Shown piece by piece: positions 3,501 to 10,416 of a stretch of DNA of 64,000 bases. The position numbers were made by a program, and so were the translations under genes. Numbering within the stretch: the first letter of the stretch is position 1; each line of letters opens with the position of its first letter. Under the pieces are notes generated by a model. The model saw only the letters and a list, made by a program, of their open reading frames with translations. It had not been told where the DNA came from and did no database searches. Source of the stretch: an uncultured SAR86 cluster bacterium (GTDB taxonomy: Bacteria > Pseudomonadota > Gammaproteobacteria > Magnimaribacterales > D2472); contig CACECK010000003.1 of assembly GCA_902557965.1 (NCBI GenBank), positions 13,326 to 77,325 on the forward strand. Direction: 5' to 3'.

Positions 3501-3892
3501 CCAAAGTTTTTAAAGGATACTTGTTGATTGTTGGCTCCATTTCTATTGTCATGGGTCTCTTAGGTATGTTTTTGCCTGATTTAGGTTGGTATCCTTCATT
3601 TGCAGATATTGAAAGAGGAACCTCTTTAGCAAACTTTATAAGAACAATGTCAGGAGTTTTTGTTGCCTCAGGTTATATTCTAATAAGGTTTATTTTTTCT
3701 TCTTCAAAAGTACAGCTTGGACATGTCTTGATATATTTAGTTGCATTTATGTTACTTGGTAAAATTTCTGGACTGTTTTATGAGGGCTTCCACTTTCACG
3801 ATATTCTTACATCAACGCTGGGTTTTATTGCTCTAATTGGGTTGATTGTTGTTCATAGACATAGAAAAAATTTACTTAACTACGATCTTTAA
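3497..3892 (+). CDS. DUF4345-like 4-TM membrane protein
   Basis: Start moved to ATG 3497 (ATGA overlap); N..R..SG.F and GK.SGL..EG pattern. Confidence 0.65.
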   Translation: MTKVFKGYLLIVGSISIVMGLLGMFLPDLGWYPSFADIERGTSLANFIRTMSGVFVASGYILIRFIFSSSKVQLGHVLIYLVAFMLLGKISGLFYEGFHFHDILTSTLGFIALIGLIVVHRHRKNLLNYDL

Positions 3893-3938
3893 AAAAACTT
3901 CCACTTAAACCATATATCTATATATAATGCCTAAGCCT

Positions 3939-4023
3939 GGGGATGTGGTGGAACTGGTAGACACGCTTGGCTTAGAACCAAGTGCCGCAAGGCGTGGGGG
4001 TTCGACTCCCTCCATCCCTACCA
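3939..4023 (+). tRNA. tRNA-Leu(TAG)
   Basis: GGGGATG/CATCCCT acceptor stem, anticodon arm CTTGG-CT-TAG-AA-CCAAG, long variable arm, GTTCGAC T-loop, encoded CCA. Confidence 0.97.
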
Positions 4024-4043
4024 AGTAATATATAATTTTAAAT

Positions 4044-4541
4044 ATGGAAATTGATTTTAGAGCTTTACAAGTAATTGCTGAAGTTGCTCTTGGTATTGTA
4101 GGTTTCTCCGCAATATTAATTGCTTTAAGTAGGGCAAAAGATGGTTTCAGCGCGCCTGATAATTTTAGGGTTCAACTCCTTACATATTCAGCTTTTGGTG
4201 CCATGTTTTGTGCGTTAATTCCATTTGCAATATTTAATAGTGAAAATTCTACAAGTAGCTGGTTGATAATTAGCTTTCTTCTTTGTATTTATTCTGTAAT
4301 AGGCTTATCTATTTTTCCAAGAAGAGTTGCAAGCTTAAGAAGGGATGGGTTCAAGAATTTATTTCCTTTAAAGATCGTTTTTTTACAGATGGGCATGCTA
4401 ATAATTATATTTATCTTATCTGGATTAATGATATTAGATGTAATCACTCAAAAAAATAATGTTTATTTACTTTGTTTAATACTATTTTTAATCCAAAGCA
4501 CGATAGCATTTATCAGAACAATGTTTGTAAGAGTACAATAA
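4044..4541 (+). CDS. Hypothetical membrane protein (about 5 TM)
   Basis: Hydrophobic 165-aa ORF with N-terminal IAEVALGIVGFSAI. Confidence 0.75.
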   Translation: MEIDFRALQVIAEVALGIVGFSAILIALSRAKDGFSAPDNFRVQLLTYSAFGAMFCALIPFAIFNSENSTSSWLIISFLLCIYSVIGLSIFPRRVASLRRDGFKNLFPLKIVFLQMGMLIIIFILSGLMILDVITQKNNVYLLCLILFLIQSTIAFIRTMFVRVQ

Positions 4542-4570
4542 GTAAAAAATTAGATTAGTTTTATAAAAAT

Positions 4571-4599
4571 CTAGCAATGCAGGTATTTTTGTATATACT
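4571..4599 (+). promoter_or_regulatory. Putative sigma70 promoter of the TonB-receptor leader
   Basis: TATACT at 4594-4599; weak -35 (CTAGCA) 17 nt upstream. Confidence 0.45.
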
Positions 4600-4607
4600 A
4601 ATGATGA

Positions 4608-4652
4608 ATGTTAAAAATTAATTTACATAAAAACCGGGAACTAGCTCAATAG
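4608..4652 (+). CDS. Putative attenuator leader peptide MLKINLHKNRELAQ (14 aa)
   Basis: ATG 8 nt after the -10 box; the stop TAG falls in the loop/start of segment 2 of the attenuator. Translation is inferred. Confidence 0.4.
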   Translation: MLKINLHKNRELAQ

Positions 4653-4702
4653 CTGGATCTTATTTTTATGAAATGGACCCAGCTGATGCTGGGTTTTTTT
4701 TT
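4636..4702 (+). promoter_or_regulatory. Transcription attenuator: mutually exclusive 1:2, 2:3 (antiterminator) and 3:4 (terminator) hairpins
   Basis: 1:2 = GGGAACTAGCT-CAAT-AGCTGGATCTT (4636-4661); 2:3 = AGCTGGATCT (4651-4660) with GGACCCAGCT (4675-4684); 3:4 = ACCCAGC-TGAT-GCTGGGT followed by T tract. Confidence 0.65.
4677..4702 (+). terminator. Intrinsic terminator immediately upstream of the TonB receptor SD
   Basis: 7-bp GC-rich stem, 4-nt loop, T9 at 4694-4702, then GAGGAG SD and ATG 4720. Confidence 0.85.
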
Positions 4703-4719
4703 ATAGAGGAGATATAAAA

Positions 4720-7098
4720 ATGAAGAATATGAAATCAATAATTTATTGTACATTTCTTGTAATACCTTTTTTTCTGATTTCGCAAGAAGTAGAAGAAGTA
4801 ATAGTTACGGCTAATAAAAAAGCTGAAACATTGCAGGAAATACCAATGAATATTTCTGTTATTACCGAAACTCAATTAGAAGAGAGAGGTATTACTAATC
4901 CTGAGGACTATTTGCGTTCACTTGCAGGAGTCTCGACTCCGGGTGGTTCAAATTACTATACTTTTAGGGGATTGAATACCTCTACCTCACAACGTTCTTC
5001 CGGAACATCATCAACCTACATTGATGAAATAGGAGGATCACTTATGAGTTTGTTTGATGTAGAAAGAATCGAAGTTCTTAGAGGTCCTCAAGGGACACTT
5101 TATGGTTCTAATGCTATCGGTGGAACAATAAGATATATAACGAACAAACCTGACTCAAGCTCATCTTATGGCAAGATAAGGGTTGGATATGGCAATAAAG
5201 TAAAAGCTGATGATCCTGAAACCAGTATTGAAATGATGTACAACGTTTCGCTTTCAGATAGTCTTGCCTTAAGAGCGGTTTATTCTCAATTAGTTTCACC
5301 TGGTATATATCAGAATATCCAAACTGGTAATACAGTTGGAGAAGAAGATGACTCACAGTTTATGGTCACATTAGGCTTTAATGATGGAGGCAAACTAACT
5401 GGAAGCTTAAGGTACGTTAATTTTAATAATAAAGCTTACGGAATTTTAGAACCTGGACAGAGTAAACCAGGCAGTGCTGACGTTTATGTTGCAGATTGTC
5501 CTCAAGCTTCAAGTTGGTGGTATAACTTTGATGGAGATCCAACTTGTTCTCGTTTAAGTGCAATATCAGGTTTTGCAGCTACTGAAGCTGATTATCCAAA
5601 CGGAAGCTCAGTGCTCACAAATTACGACCCTAAATATGCACATGCTTTAGCAGCAGATGAGTCAGAAGATATTACTAGAGAAACTCTTATAGCTAATATT
5701 AAATATGATTTTGGTGCTTTTGACGCAAACTTAATCATCTCAGATAGAACAGTAACAGATGATTCCGTAACTGATTGGGCTAGGATTGATATGGATGATT
5801 ATGTTCCTGCACCTCTTATAGTGGATGGTGATAAATATTATGAGGAAACAACAGAACTTAGACTAACATCAAAGCCAGGAAAATTTGAATGGACGATTGG
5901 GTATTACAATTACAAATTCAATGAACAGCCTAATTCAATTTCACAAACTCAATACGCAGTTAGTGCATATTGGCTTGATTATGTAACTGAAATTGCTGCT
6001 GGAGTTGATCCAGCTGTTTACGACGCTACAGCTTACTGTCCTCCATTTTGTGAGGATCATTTAGGTTACCCTAACTTGTATTATGCTTCTTATACCGAAT
6101 TTAACGAACAAGAAGAGACATCTTTGTATGGTCAGTTTGACTATAACGTCAATGATAAATTGACTCTAACTTTAGGTATTAGAGATTATGAAATTGATGA
6201 TGCATCAAAAACTTACCAATATGGTATTTTTTATATGGATAGTAATGGTTGTGATGGTAATGATCCAGCAGGTACTGATTGTGCTGAACTATCTGGTTCG
6301 GAATCTGATACTAGAATGAAATATGCTGTGAGCTATTTGGTTAACGAAGATTTAACCTTATATGCTACTCAGGCAGCAGGTTATAGACCTGGTGGAAATC
6401 AGGCACCACTTCCTCCATTTTGTAGTAGTGATGAAGCAGCACAAGCCAACTTTTCAAGAAGGTTTAATTCAGATGAAGCTGAAACTACCGAATTTGGTGT
6501 TAAAGCAAGAGGTGAAAACTATTCAGCTAATGTCACTTATTTTGATGTTGATTGGGATGGAATAATAATCCAAGTAACACCAGGATGTGGCTGGAGATAT
6601 AACTTTAATGGAGGTAAGGCTGAAACTTCTGGTTGGGAGGTAGACTTTACATATGCTGTTAATGACTCAATTTCCATAGATTTTGCAGGAAGTTCTATGA
6701 CTGCAGAAACTTCAATCGATATTGATTCTCTTGGAGCATCAGCAGGTGACAGATTGCCCAATACTGTTGAAACTCAATGGAATTTGGGTTTAGTTTATGA
6801 CACTACAATCATGTCATATCCATCTTACGCAAGACTTGATGTTAATTATTATGGAGATAGTTTTAATACTTTTGCTGAGAATCCAAATTCAAGCTCACCA
6901 GATTACACAAAGTTAAACTTTAATCTTGGAGTGGACTTGAATGAGAATTCCATACTACAACTATCTATTGATAACTTAACAGACGAGAGAACTGAAGCAT
7001 ATATATATGCTGTTGACGATACATCATGGAGGCCAAGAAACTGGATGCAGTGGATACCTCCTAGAACTGTTTCACTAAAATATTCATATAGTTTTTAA
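4720..7098 (+). CDS. TonB-dependent outer-membrane receptor
   Basis: Signal peptide, TonB box EEVIVTA, plug motif DVERIEVLRGPQGTLYGSNAIGGTI, C-terminal PRTVSLKYSYSF. Confidence 0.96.
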   Translation: MKNMKSIIYCTFLVIPFFLISQEVEEVIVTANKKAETLQEIPMNISVITETQLEERGITNPEDYLRSLAGVSTPGGSNYYTFRGLNTSTSQRSSGTSSTYIDEIGGSLMSLFDVERIEVLRGPQGTLYGSNAIGGTIRYITNKPDSSSSYGKIRVGYGNKVKADDPETSIEMMYNVSLSDSLALRAVYSQLVSPGIYQNIQTGNTVGEEDDSQFMVTLGFNDGGKLTGSLRYVNFNNKAYGILEPGQSKPGSADVYVADCPQASSWWYNFDGDPTCSRLSAISGFAATEADYPNGSSVLTNYDPKYAHALAADESEDITRETLIANIKYDFGAFDANLIISDRTVTDDSVTDWARIDMDDYVPAPLIVDGDKYYEETTELRLTSKPGKFEWTIGYYNYKFNEQPNSISQTQYAVSAYWLDYVTEIAAGVDPAVYDATAYCPPFCEDHLGYPNLYYASYTEFNEQEETSLYGQFDYNVNDKLTLTLGIRDYEIDDASKTYQYGIFYMDSNGCDGNDPAGTDCAELSGSESDTRMKYAVSYLVNEDLTLYATQAAGYRPGGNQAPLPPFCSSDEAAQANFSRRFNSDEAETTEFGVKARGENYSANVTYFDVDWDGIIIQVTPGCGWRYNFNGGKAETSGWEVDFTYAVNDSISIDFAGSSMTAETSIDIDSLGASAGDRLPNTVETQWNLGLVYDTTIMSYPSYARLDVNYYGDSFNTFAENPNSSSPDYTKLNFNLGVDLNENSILQLSIDNLTDERTEAYIYAVDDTSWRPRNWMQWIPPRTVSLKYSYSF

Positions 7099-7122: not shown

Positions 7123-7147
7123 ATATGGGGAGTATGACTCCCCATAT
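7123..7147 (+). terminator. Strong hairpin after the TonB receptor (terminator or 3' stabiliser)
   Basis: ATATGGGGAGT-ATG-ACTCCCCATAT perfect 11-bp stem; no clear U tract. Confidence 0.65.
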
Positions 7148-7167: not shown

Positions 7168-7785
7168 ATGAATAATGTAGCAATTTTTGGTAAAAAGGGA
7201 TCTATTGCAAAGTATGATTTAACAGAAAATAAACCAATATGGGTAGGCGATCTTCCAAGTGGACATACTCCTTACATTATTGGTCAATATGAAAATTACG
7301 TAATTGTATTTAGTTGGACTTGGCTTGGTTCTAAGATGGTTCATTGTTTTAGAGAAGATACCGGTCAACTTTTATGGTCACATTATCAAGAAATAATTCA
7401 CAGCTCTATGATTCCATTTGTGCCGCATACTTTAGATAATCACATGTACTATTTGGCATCATCTAAAGAAATAGCAAAAATGTCTTGGGATTCGGGAAGA
7501 TTTATTTTTAGAAAAAGGTTCAAAAAATCAATTTTTAATCAATATTCAGTTGTAATAATTTCTGATGAAGTTTTTTTAATATCAAAGAAGGATGCATTAA
7601 AAGTTGATAAAAATACCGGGGATGTTTCTCCTTACCCTGAATTATCAGACAAACTTAATCTAAAAGAGATATCTGCAACCCTTGGTAATGGAACCTCTTT
7701 CATGTCTTCAATATATTTAACTCATCCTCAATCCTCTGATGGTGGATCTTATGCAGGAGATGGAGGCGGTGGTGGCGGAGAGTGA
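7168..7785 (+). CDS. Hypothetical protein with PQQ-like beta-propeller blades and Gly-rich tail
   Basis: YDLTENKPIW, CFREDTGQLLW, SWDSGRFIF, VDKNTGDV blade motifs; ends DGGSYAGDGGGGGGE; no signal peptide. Confidence 0.6.
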   Translation: MNNVAIFGKKGSIAKYDLTENKPIWVGDLPSGHTPYIIGQYENYVIVFSWTWLGSKMVHCFREDTGQLLWSHYQEIIHSSMIPFVPHTLDNHMYYLASSKEIAKMSWDSGRFIFRKRFKKSIFNQYSVVIISDEVFLISKKDALKVDKNTGDVSPYPELSDKLNLKEISATLGNGTSFMSSIYLTHPQSSDGGSYAGDGGGGGGE

Positions 7786-7786
7786 T

Positions 7787-9145
7787 ATGAGTAAGGGTTT
7801 TGTCTTATCTGATAATATTCTAAAAAATGATGTTAATGACAATAAATTTGATGGCGCATACTCACATAAGGCCTCAAAATCCCTAAATGACTTGGATCTA
7901 TTCACAAAAGGACAGCCTTTTGATTTTTATAAAGAGTTAAGAGAAAAAGCGCCAATATATTTTCATCAACCAATGCCTACAGATCCTGAACCTGGATATT
8001 GGGTTTTAACAAAATATGAAGATATTAAATATGTATCAATGAATCCAAATATCTTTTCATCACAATACTCATCCGGAAATTTATTAACTCTCGGCAATGA
8101 AGAGAACAGACATCCAAAACTTTTTAAATCTACTATTGATCATATGCTTAATCTCGATGGAGAGATGCACCTTGGCTTAAGAAAAGAACATATGCCTTTT
8201 TTTAAACCAGGCCATGTTGAAGAATTGCAGAAAAAAGTTTCAATGAAAGTTACTGAACTTTTAGATGCAATAGCGCCGTTAGGAGAATGTAATCTTGTTC
8301 ATAACGTATCACAACAATTACCAATCTTTACGTTATCTGAGGTTTTGGGCATTCCTGAAGAAGATAGGCAGAAGCTAGTTTCATGGATGGAATTTTTGGA
8401 ACTTGCTCAATACTTCACCTACGAAATGATTAAAGAACAAAATGAGGGTAAAACTAACTCTACACCAGATCCAGCAATGATAGAAATGTTTAATGCAATG
8501 GTTGATGAGATGTTTGACTATGGAAGGTTTATTTTAAAAGAAAAAAGAAAAAATCCCTCAGAAGATCTCCTGAGTGCAATTGCTAATGCTGAAATCGATG
8601 GTGAAAAACTAACAGATGAATTTTTAGACGGATCTTGGCTCTTAATTATTTTTGCAGGTAACGACACGACAAGAAATACTATGAGTGGAGGAATAAAGTT
8701 ATTGCATGAAAATCAGAAACAAAAAGAATTATTAATGCAAGATTCTGATTTACTTCCAAATTTTATTCACGAAACAATAAGGTGTGTTTCTCCAGTTATT
8801 CATATGAGAAGGACTTCTCTAGAGGAAACTGAAATAGGTGGTCAAAGAATAGGACCATTTGAAAAAATCTCATTATGGTATGGAGCTGCAAATAGAGATC
8901 CAGATATTTTTGAAAGTCCCGACGAATTTAATATCTTAAGAGCAAATGCTGATAAGCATTTGGCATTTGGTATTGGAAGACATACTTGCTTAGGCAAGCC
9001 AATAGCATTAATGCAATTAAAGGAGTTTTATTCACAATTTTTAAATAGGTTTAAAGATTTTGAATTGAATGGTGAATGGAAAGTTGCCCCTAATAATTTT
9101 GTTCATGCCATTCAAGAGATGCCAATAAAATTTACCCCTGAATGA
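7787..9145 (+). CDS. Cytochrome P450 (bacterial soluble)
   Basis: I-helix FAGNDTT, ExxR (ETIR), AANRDP, heme loop FGIGRHTCLG. Start moved to ATG 7787 (GGAG SD inside the upstream gene). Confidence 0.96.
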   Translation: MSKGFVLSDNILKNDVNDNKFDGAYSHKASKSLNDLDLFTKGQPFDFYKELREKAPIYFHQPMPTDPEPGYWVLTKYEDIKYVSMNPNIFSSQYSSGNLLTLGNEENRHPKLFKSTIDHMLNLDGEMHLGLRKEHMPFFKPGHVEELQKKVSMKVTELLDAIAPLGECNLVHNVSQQLPIFTLSEVLGIPEEDRQKLVSWMEFLELAQYFTYEMIKEQNEGKTNSTPDPAMIEMFNAMVDEMFDYGRFILKEKRKNPSEDLLSAIANAEIDGEKLTDEFLDGSWLLIIFAGNDTTRNTMSGGIKLLHENQKQKELLMQDSDLLPNFIHETIRCVSPVIHMRRTSLEETEIGGQRIGPFEKISLWYGAANRDPDIFESPDEFNILRANADKHLAFGIGRHTCLGKPIALMQLKEFYSQFLNRFKDFELNGEWKVAPNNFVHAIQEMPIKFTPE

Positions 9146-10416
9146 TAATTCCCTATCGATTTAAAGTTATTTTTTTATCATTTTTAGCAGTGTTTATTTG
9201 CTATATAGACAGAGTAAATATTTCTGTAGCAATCATTCCAATGCAAGAACAGTTTGGTTGGTCTGAATCACAAGTAGGAATCATTTTAGGATCTTTTTAT
9301 TTTGGATATATGATCACTATGATACTTGGCGGCTATCTAGCAGATAAATATGGCGGAAAAAAAGTTCTCGGGTATGGATTACTAATATGGTCGTTTTTTA
9401 CAATTATTACTCCTTTTTTTGCATATCAAGGGTTATGGTGGCTAATTTTAATAAGAATTTTAATGGGGCTAGGAGAGGGCGTAACTTTTCCATCATGGCA
9501 TGCAATTTATGCAAGATGGATACCATTCAAAGAGAGAACCAGAGCTGTTGGTTTTACAAATAGTGGAATTGCAGCAGGGACATTGTTTGGATATGCGGTT
9601 GCAGCGTTAATAATAGCTAACTATTCTTGGGAGTGGGTATTTTATTCGTTTGGAGTCTTAGGATTTTTTTGGTATTTTTTTTGGAACAGAAGTGTTACAT
9701 CTTTTCCAGAAGATAATCAGAGCTTGTCTCAAAATGAACTAGAATTAATTCAGTCAGAGGCACCAGCTAAAGATTCTGCTTCATCAATACCATTACTCAA
9801 ACTTATTCAAAATGGTCCATTTATGGCAATCACTGTTGCTACATTTTGCAACAATTGGTCTCTTTATACTTTTTTATCTTATTTACCAAAATATGTTAAT
9901 GCACCTGTTTCTCAGGGCGGTATGGGGATAGACTTAGGTTCAAATGCATTTATCTATTCAATTGTAATTCCTTGTCTAGTTGCAATGATTGCACTTATAT
10001 TGGGTGGTTTCTTAGCTGATGGCTTGATTAAAAGAGGTCATGAAGTTCTTAAGGTTAGAAAAACCGTTAATTCAATAGGATTTTTTGGATCAGCATTTTT
10101 CTTATACTTAATTTCTTTTGAAGACTCACTTATTAATGCTGTTATTTTACTTTGTCTTATTAATATTTGTTCAGGAATTTGTGCAGGTGGATTTGGAGTC
10201 AATCATGCAGATTTAGGACCAAAATATACTGGCTCATTAGTAGGAATAGCTGGGAGTATTGGGATGATTGCTGCAATTTTTGCTCCAATAGTAGCTGGAT
10301 TTATTTTAGAAATAACAAACTCATGGAGTTCAATTTTTTACATATGCTCATTGGTTTTAATTTTTGGAGGACTTTTTTATCTAATATTTGCTAGTGCAAG
10401 TAAACAGTTTGAATAA
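9142..10416 (+). CDS. MFS transporter, anion:cation symporter (ACS/SLC17-like) family
   Basis: ICYIDRVNISVAIIPM, GGYLADKYGGKK, RILMGLGEGVTFP, NHADLGPKYTG; ATGA overlap with P450. Confidence 0.92.
   Translation: MIIPYRFKVIFLSFLAVFICYIDRVNISVAIIPMQEQFGWSESQVGIILGSFYFGYMITMILGGYLADKYGGKKVLGYGLLIWSFFTIITPFFAYQGLWWLILIRILMGLGEGVTFPSWHAIYARWIPFKERTRAVGFTNSGIAAGTLFGYAVAALIIANYSWEWVFYSFGVLGFFWYFFWNRSVTSFPEDNQSLSQNELELIQSEAPAKDSASSIPLLKLIQNGPFMAITVATFCNNWSLYTFLSYLPKYVNAPVSQGGMGIDLGSNAFIYSIVIPCLVAMIALILGGFLADGLIKRGHEVLKVRKTVNSIGFFGSAFFLYLISFEDSLINAVILLCLINICSGICAGGFGVNHADLGPKYTGSLVGIAGSIGMIAAIFAPIVAGFILEITNSWSSIFYICSLVLIFGGLFYLIFASASKQFE

Follow-up and report, generated by a model that had tools for sequence, protein, structure and literature searches.

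A probable arginine-sensing attenuator, inherited from an arginine operon, ahead of a TonB-dependent receptor gene in SAR86 bacteria

Examining a 64,000-nucleotide window of contig CACECK010000003.1 (the whole stretch of DNA analysed here, from an uncultured SAR86 cluster bacterium), we found that the gene for a TonB-dependent receptor is preceded by a short leader with its own reading frame, alternative hairpins and an intrinsic terminator. Sequence and synteny comparisons indicate that this leader is homologous to the one heading the arginine biosynthesis (arg) operon of sister genera, and that in the window's lineage the arg genes were lost and the receptor gene now stands behind the retained leader. 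We consider it likely that the leader is a trp-type attenuator with an apparently leaderless reading frame, which senses arginine tRNA, was inherited from an arg operon and gates the receptor in a probable arginine auxotroph. Its parts in the window are listed below (nt, nucleotides; aa, amino acids; ORF, open reading frame).

4572..4577, + strand: weak −35-like hexamer TAGCAA, 16 nt upstream of the −10 box, 3 mismatches to TTGACA
4594..4599, + strand: −10 box TATACT of the putative promoter
4608..4652, + strand: leader ORF, 14 codons plus TAG, encoding MLKINLHKNRELAQ and then the stop; start 8 nt past the −10 box; apparently leaderless
4621..4674, + strand: P1, the 'protector', a long imperfect hairpin (5′ strand 4621-4646, within the ORF; loop 4647-4650; 3′ strand 4651-4674, made up of segment 2 and a spacer)
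4635..4637, + strand: CGG arginine codon, the proposed sensing codon, 15 nt ahead of the stop and segment 2
4650-4652, + strand: TAG stop codon of the leader ORF
4651..4684, + strand: antiterminator (2:3), segment 2 (4651-4660, AGCTGGATCT) with the 5′ arm of the terminator (4675-4684)
4675..4702, + strand: intrinsic terminator, stem 4675-4683 with 4688-4696, 9 pairs (5 G-C), loop TGAT
4694-4702, + strand: T-run of the terminator, nine T's
4707-4712, + strand: Shine-Dalgarno sequence GAGGAG, belonging to the receptor gene
4720-7098, + strand: TonB-dependent receptor gene, 792 aa, ATG at 4720, 17 nt past the end of the T-run (4702); the proposed regulated gene

One leader ahead of two kinds of operon

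Searching genomes of the window's genus and family, all of them metagenome-assembled or of comparable kind, we found the full-length element by BLAST (E < 0.002) in 30 of the 41 genomes of the genus, and a covariance model built from 29 sequences gave strong matches (E ≤ 6.4e-11) in the same 30. A model from 49 sequences, R2, has one strong match per genome (E < 1e-7) in 66 of 139 genomes of the family. The element always lies directly upstream of an operon on the same strand: 38 of the 66 copies precede argF′, which encodes an N-acetylornithine carbamoyltransferase (model NF003384, 520 bits), 27 precede the receptor gene, all in the window's genus, and one, in genome G249, precedes a truncated gene for an MFS transporter. 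We refer to the first two kinds as arg-type and receptor-type leaders. Of 24 genomes sampled in the genus, 16 encode an orthologue of the receptor (68–93% identical), and each of these 16 has the leader upstream. Within the window's own genome, BLAST returned only the element itself, the next match having an E value of 0.013.

The arg-type and receptor-type loci share their surroundings. In genome G007, the one genome in which we read the operon order, the leader heads argF′-argG-argB-argC-argH, and the MFS gene behind argH is 74% identical to that of the window; in both locus types the leader lies between a tRNA-Leu gene and this same MFS gene, for which the window's coordinates are:

3939..4023, + strand: tRNA-Leu gene (anticodon TAG; ARAGORN, and Rfam tRNA at 57.9 bits), upstream synteny anchor
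9142..10416, + strand: MFS transporter gene, downstream synteny anchor common to the arg-operon genomes

Most receptor-type and several arg-type genomes have the tRNA-Leu gene directly upstream of the leader, and in other arg-type genomes a GH16-like gene, a P450 gene or another gene takes that place; since the upstream genes vary, the element evidently travels with the operon behind it and not with the gene ahead. The same comparison settles a doubt attached to the original prediction, that the hairpin might merely terminate the ORF at 4044-4541. We discard this explanation because most orthologous loci lack that ORF yet have the element, with other genes upstream; its C-terminal end stands ahead of the leader in a few loci only (G018, G020, G049, G050 and G051). 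The ORF itself, between tRNA-Leu and the leader, encodes a hydrophobic protein of 165 aa without a Pfam or NCBIfam match, and a contig from RNA-library run X10 joins 4023 to 4614, skipping it.

The arg genes are absent from the window's genome as assembled: ArgF′, ArgG, ArgB and ArgH of G007 have no tblastn match in this genome (81.5% complete), and ArgC has only a weak one (28% over 148 residues, E 1e-5). Across the genus, argF′ is present in 3 of 41 genomes (E ≤ 1e-40); argH scores above the curated threshold in 2 of 41, neither of which is among the seven genomes that are at least 90% complete. In four other genera of the family, argF′ occurs in 12 of 14, 5 of 5, 13 of 14 and 3 of 5 sampled genomes. 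Being common elsewhere in the family and rare here, the arg operon is apparently ancestral, and most members of the genus would then be probable arginine auxotrophs. A published study reports one SAR86 genome without arginine synthesis genes and another with them, on contigs that are otherwise syntenic, and regards much of the natural SAR86 population as probably auxotrophic for arginine (PMC3358033); the window's lineage shows the same pattern of presence and absence, and its genome size, GC content, proteorhodopsin-like gene and many TonB receptors are likewise in keeping with SAR86. Where that study treats the polymorphism, it does not speak of a leader peptide, an attenuator or a receptor gene at this place; these come from the present analysis.

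Two genomes of the genus show a third state of the locus. In G002 (L174, G002:C2 5718-5880) the tRNA-Leu gene is followed after 77 nt by a gene for a 207-aa protein and then by P450 and MFS genes, and in G023 (L173, G023:C2 2300-2640) by another ORF; searches with model R2 and with the receptor found neither leader nor receptor orthologue in either genome. The single copy ahead of a truncated MFS gene (G249; L141, G249:C2 ~271971-272082) is identical to the leader of G205, with its terminator joined to the middle of the MFS gene, so that the 5′ end of this gene and all of the arg operon are missing; either a genuine deletion or an assembly error could be the cause, the genome being 59% complete.

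Promoter, reading frame and alternative folds

Judged by its conserved hexamers, the promoter is convincing in arg-type leaders and weaker in receptor-type ones. TATACT stands at the −10 position in 27 of 27 receptor-type leaders and 31 of 39 arg-type leaders, the remainder having TATAAT, TATCAT or TATTAT, and TTTACA lies 16–18 nt upstream of the −10 box in 37 of 39 arg-type leaders as against 5 of 27 receptor-type leaders. From the −10 hexamer to the first in-frame start codon the distance is 6–10 nt in 63 of the 66 elements, so that the coincidence of start codon and predicted transcription start, first noticed in the window alone, recurs in the orthologues. This spacing leaves no room for a Shine-Dalgarno sequence, which suggests that the leader ORF is probably leaderless, with transcription, as placed from the conserved −10 box, starting at or a few bases from ATG4608.

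An ORF in frame with the CGG codon is present in all 66 elements and is 14 codons long in 57 of them (36 of 38 arg-type leaders, 20 of 27 receptor-type leaders and the G249 copy). Across 65 sequences (one of the 66, containing N's, was left out), the 13 codons around CGG contain no stop in the frame of the ORF in any case, and each of the other two frames is open in 11. Insertions and deletions within the ORF are of 3 nt (CAT in five sequences; TAT, AAT or TTT in three), the sole exception being a compensated shift in one lineage (G008). The stop codon is in most cases the TAG of TAGCTGG, a string joining stop and segment 2 that is invariant or nearly so; 5 of 29 sequences of the genus have a TAA 3–4 nt earlier. 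The distance from the C of CGG to the start of the stop is likewise fixed, at 15 nt in 62 of 65 sequences, 12 nt in two and 18 nt in one. Retention in 66 genomes together with a frame so consistently open indicates that the element is more than a chance arrangement, and the pattern suggests that the ORF at 4608-4652 is translated.

The original prediction had described a four-segment geometry of the trp/his type, and its −10 box, ORF, terminator, 2:3 pairing and receptor Shine-Dalgarno sequence all lie where it put them. Its pairing of segments 1 and 2 is also present, but only as the tip of the longer hairpin P1, in which 4621-4646 pairs with 4651-4674. As RNA, 4606-4720 folds at −32.3 kcal/mol (z = −4.9; 0 of 200 shuffles are as stable). 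The minimum free energy fold of the whole element combines P1 (mean −14.2 kcal/mol, z −2.3 against shuffles) with the terminator stem-loop (mean −13.5 kcal/mol) in 45 of 49 sequences and takes the 2:3 form in the other four. We modelled a stalled ribosome by masking the RNA up to CGG+13 and folding what remained. In the window, 4649-4684 then forms 4651-4656:4679-4684 and 4658-4660:4675-4677 at −11.5 kcal/mol, reproducing the predicted pairing of 4651-4660 with 4675-4684, and under this mask every one of the 65 sequences folds into the same antiterminator, at a mean of −11.8 kcal/mol (z −3.7 against shuffles), so that the four-segment geometry extends to the orthologues. Nor do these keep only the terminator hairpin: the ORF, segment 2 and their spacing are retained with it.

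The terminator is paired in 98.8% of cells across 64 distinct sequences, with one C-G to U-A double change. In the outer stem of P1 the sequences of the strands vary between lineages while their complementarity is kept, as five examples illustrate:

Window: 5′ strand CAUAAAAA, 3′ strand UUUUUAUG
G054: 5′ strand AUAAAAGC, 3′ strand GCUUUUAU
G007: 5′ strand AUACACAA, 3′ strand UUGUGUAU
G057: 5′ strand ACAUAACA, 3′ strand UGUUAUGU
G009: 5′ strand CACAUAGAGUUC, 3′ strand GGGCUUUAUGUG

In an alignment fitted to the model, 84.1% of cells are paired, as against 36–57% after the partners are slid. RNAalifold applied to a MAFFT alignment showed nothing beyond the terminator and a CGG:CUG helix of 3 bp; the long hairpin is visible in per-sequence folds only, because its register differs between lineages.

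This geometry is that expected of an attenuator. Some 13 nt downstream of CGG are covered by a ribosome that has this codon in its A site, so that one stalled there would hide the 5′ strand of P1 and end just short of segment 2. A ribosome that had reached the stop, which overlaps segment 2, would cover that segment. The modelling thus yields a mutually exclusive antiterminator, with segment 2 predicted to be freed by a stall and masked by termination of translation. In E. coli trpL, a 14-codon leader with its sensing codons a few codons before the stop and exclusive 1:2, 2:3 and 3:4 pairings, a stall gives read-through, and full translation or none gives termination. Here, transcription would start at or within a few bases of ATG4608. 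Without a ribosome, segment 2 would be held in P1, the terminator at 4675-4702 would form and the transcript would end before the receptor; a ribosome at the TAG at 4650 would cover segment 2, with the same outcome. A ribosome waiting at CGG (4635-4637) would instead cover the 5′ strand of P1 and leave segment 2 free to pair with the 5′ arm of the terminator, and RNA polymerase would read into the receptor gene. The signal would be the supply of charged arginine tRNA. With the arg leader retained and the arg genes lost, the receptor would be expected to be on under arginine shortage in a probable auxotroph.

The sensing codon and rival readings

CGG is present in 66 of 66 leaders. The original prediction took it to be likely rare, and it is in fact the rarest sense codon of the window's genome (32.8% GC, about 1.05 Mb assembled), accounting for 58 of 247,169 codons in 565 long ORFs and for 0.7% of arginine codons. 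Arg-type leaders usually carry it in the pair AGA-CGG: two arginine codons are found in 27 of these 38 leaders, three in nine and one in two. Receptor-type leaders have one in 20 cases and two in seven (n = 27), the window's leader having CGG alone. In genus g13 the order is CGG-AGA in three of five leaders and CGG stands alone in two of five, and the swap suggests that the amino acid is conserved and not a fixed string of bases. At the position of CGG, AGG was never seen in the leaders, although it would preserve both the arginine and the GG pairing in P1.

Several observations weigh against an arginine-sensing attenuator in front of the receptor. One sensing codon is fewer than textbook attenuators have, and the GG of CGG pairs inside P1, so that part of the conservation of CGG could be structural. 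Covariation is modest: cells with double changes number 25 as against 15.2 in shuffles (0 of 500 shuffles reach 25), but a +3 slide yields 36 of them in this structure-fitted alignment. Among the 30 tRNA genes detected in the window's genome, tRNA-Arg is represented only by the anticodons UCG and UCU; none with ACG or CCG was found, and this two-member set comes from the 81.5%-complete assembly and may be incomplete. Partial relaxation of the receptor-type leaders also counts here: of these 27, the second arginine codon is gone from 20, 22 have a weak −35, and in 6–7 the only usable in-frame start is GTG, a poor start for leaderless initiation. Contigs from RNA libraries bear on both sides. 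In favour of the attenuator, those of two studies pass from the leader over the terminator into the receptor gene (X7, 4620-5646; X2, 4072-5435), the terminator being bridged in two of four runs, although such contigs cannot show transcript ends, say nothing of conditions and may derive from DNA. In two other runs the receptor contigs begin only at 4705 and 4715, but neither contig starts nor stretches without cover tell where transcripts end.

The receptor offers no chemical tie to arginine. Its domains are a Plug (PF07715, 1.3e-18, N-terminal) and a C-terminal 22-strand barrel (TonB_dep_Rec_b-barrel, PF00593, 2.7e-25). No equivalog-level NCBIfam model exceeds its cut-off for this protein, a PDB sequence search returned matches to the plug domain only (receptors for siderophores, haem, B12 and colicins), and a large protein search gave generic names only; none of these searches connects the receptor with arginine, which again tells against the proposal. 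We put forward only tentatively, as something we would sooner doubt than assert, that in a streamlined marine lineage without arginine synthesis an old arg attenuator has been rewired so that low charged Arg-tRNA, at a single ultra-rare CGG in a leaderless ORF of 14 codons, turns on the receptor as a means of scavenging arginine or a source of it.

The relaxation just described is also what would be expected of an evolutionary relic, a leader left over from the replaced arg operon that acts as a fixed partial terminator and gives no meaningful response to arginine. The loss of the second arginine codon, the GTG starts and the degraded −35 all fit such a history, as does the G249 leader, which has outlived the deletion that fused it to the middle of an MFS gene, and on account of this relaxation the relic keeps some weight. 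Yet 27 of 27 receptor-type leaders retain the ORF, CGG, TAGCTGG, the spacing between CGG and segment 2, and the terminator, and they do so while identity between the receptors has fallen to 68% and the non-coding bases nearby change freely. The receptor-less genomes G002 and G023 are leader-less too, and a GC-rich codon that is the rarest in its genome is unlikely to persist by drift at 33% GC. We judge a relic unlikely.

Still less probable is a nascent-peptide arrest or a translation-rate sensor, responding to a small molecule or to global translation capacity and not to the charging of Arg-tRNA. The single arginine codon of the window's leader and the pattern His-Lys-x-Arg-Gly/Glu, which recurs among receptor-type leader peptides, would suit such a device, and a leaderless start could tie the switch to initiation capacity. 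Against this, arg-type and receptor-type peptides have little in common apart from arginine, the residues that follow CGG change at positions tied by RNA pairing to segment 2, and the link to the arg operon, together with doubled or tripled arginine codons, already explains the design. Because the same leader heads arg operons elsewhere, the signal has a name, and the arrest peptide, riboswitch and protein-dependent antiterminator that the original prediction had considered become unnecessary, though still conceivable.

A riboswitch or protein-dependent antiterminator, in which P1 or its apex binds a metabolite or protein and the ORF is incidental, seems to us very improbable. TonB receptor genes are often preceded by riboswitch leaders, and a stable conserved hairpin (z −4.9) does stand beside the terminator. 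The original prediction had found no match to TPP or cobalamin riboswitches, however, and a scan of Rfam agrees: only tRNA exceeded threshold in 3800-5000 (E up to 10) and in five related loci (E up to 0.1), the best other match being SorY at 31.7 bits against a threshold of 111. The element has no multi-stem junction or conserved internal loop; what is conserved is the start codon, CGG, stop plus segment 2 and the terminator, and in its frame, its length and its 3-nt indels the ORF looks like one that is translated.

That the leader is instead an independent small RNA (sRNA) gene, whose ~95-nt terminated transcript acts in trans while the receptor has its own promoter, is hard to credit: the sub-threshold Rfam resemblances are all to sRNAs (SorY, PrrF and RprA, 22–32 bits against thresholds of 70–111) and two receptor contigs from RNA libraries start past the terminator, but 4685-4712 holds no −10-like hexamer, just 17 nt lie between T-run and receptor ATG, the element always precedes a same-strand operon, other contigs bridge the terminator, and a role in trans would not exclude attenuation.

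Kindred attenuators and neighbouring genes

The leader resembles E. coli trpL and the his, leu, thr and phe leaders in its short ORF (14 codons, as in trpL), its exclusive pairings and a terminator placed before the first structural gene. It departs from the trp/his family in that arginine would be sensed, through a single very rare codon with zero to two further arginine codons; in that no Rfam leader family matches it; in that the gene regulated in the window would be an outer-membrane receptor and not a biosynthetic operon; and in that the ORF is apparently leaderless, without a Shine-Dalgarno sequence, a design not known for the leader ORF of Salmonella speF. Leaderless short polycysteine ORFs at the heads of mycobacterial operons have been described as amino-acid-responsive attenuators (bioRxiv 10.1101/834739); as presented there, these are likewise leaderless, rich in the cognate codon and placed at the head of an operon, and they differ in phylum and amino acid. 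The speF leader reads arginine availability through the arginine codons of an upstream ORF (uORF) and thereby alters mRNA conformation (PMC6386406), so that an arginine-codon ORF is common to both; it serves a polyamine gene in an enteric bacterium and is unrelated to the present element in sequence or structure. The cysS uORF motif, with a conserved uORF and tandem cognate codons at fixed positions beside a terminator stem, was, like the present element, found by sequence comparison only, for other amino acids in other lineages (PMC8632094). The passages of that survey that concern arginine give one motif, carA, a hairpin for which they make no claim of a uORF (PMC8632094).

Our searches of open-access full text and Rfam found neither this element nor any bacterial operon for arginine biosynthesis described as having a leader-peptide attenuator; an earlier comparative-genomics description may exist outside the open-access literature. 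To our knowledge, no bacterial arginine-biosynthesis operon has been described as being under leader-peptide attenuation. The class of mechanism is classical; new are its specificity for arginine, the use of one rare codon as the sensor, an ORF that is apparently leaderless and, in an auxotroph, the recruitment of the leader to a receptor gene. The element would add a family of arginine-specific attenuators in a marine group that is abundant and uncultured, and it offers a natural experiment, since at one syntenic locus the same regulatory cassette stands before either the arg operon or a receptor gene. These bacteria have many orphan TonB receptors, and for one of them the element gives a concrete, testable hint of its role in the cell; it also suggests how auxotrophs might sense what they no longer make. 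If correct, our tentative proposal of rewiring would make this the first case of an amino-acid biosynthetic attenuator exapted for the control of nutrient uptake in an auxotroph, and the receptor a part of a response that scavenges arginine or a source of it.

Downstream of the receptor, just past its stop, 7123-7147 forms a perfect 11-bp hairpin, ATATGGGGAGT-ATG-ACTCCCCATAT, without a T-run, and a TATATAAT box lies between this hairpin and a gene at 7168 that encodes 205 aa. These two features suggest that the receptor may be a single-gene unit, and that the 205-aa, P450 and MFS genes may have a promoter of their own. The 205-aa ORF (7168-7785), whose PQQ_2/BamB-like match is weak and falls short of the Pfam threshold (E 2.6e-4), overlaps the start of the P450 ORF (7739-9145) by 47 nt; the true P450 start may be further downstream.

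Weaker matches of models R1 and R2 (E 1e-5 to 0.9) were set aside, all those inspected being plain terminators of the form ACCCAGC-loop-GCTGGGT-T run and not attenuators. They lie mostly behind a proteorhodopsin-like gene, with a few behind other genes. After the proteorhodopsin-like gene the hairpin recurs nearly letter for letter (G000:C1:167735-167864, minus strand, in the window's genome, and loci L102-L110 of the genus), and it seems to be a favoured terminator sequence of the lineage.

Genus g15 (L130-L140) has a different arg-operon leader in seven of nine loci read, within a region about 30–230 nt upstream of argF′. Its ORF is of 37–56 codons, ends 32–38 nt before argF′ and has an arginine-rich C-terminus (INRRRRSI/V, VKRRLRSI, TQRIRSL/V or AQKLRSL, directly before the stop). 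The ORF is followed in several loci by a short hairpin that lacks a T-run, and in two a −10-like hexamer lies just before the ATG. By its sequence, this looks like a second, independent arginine-codon leader design within the family.

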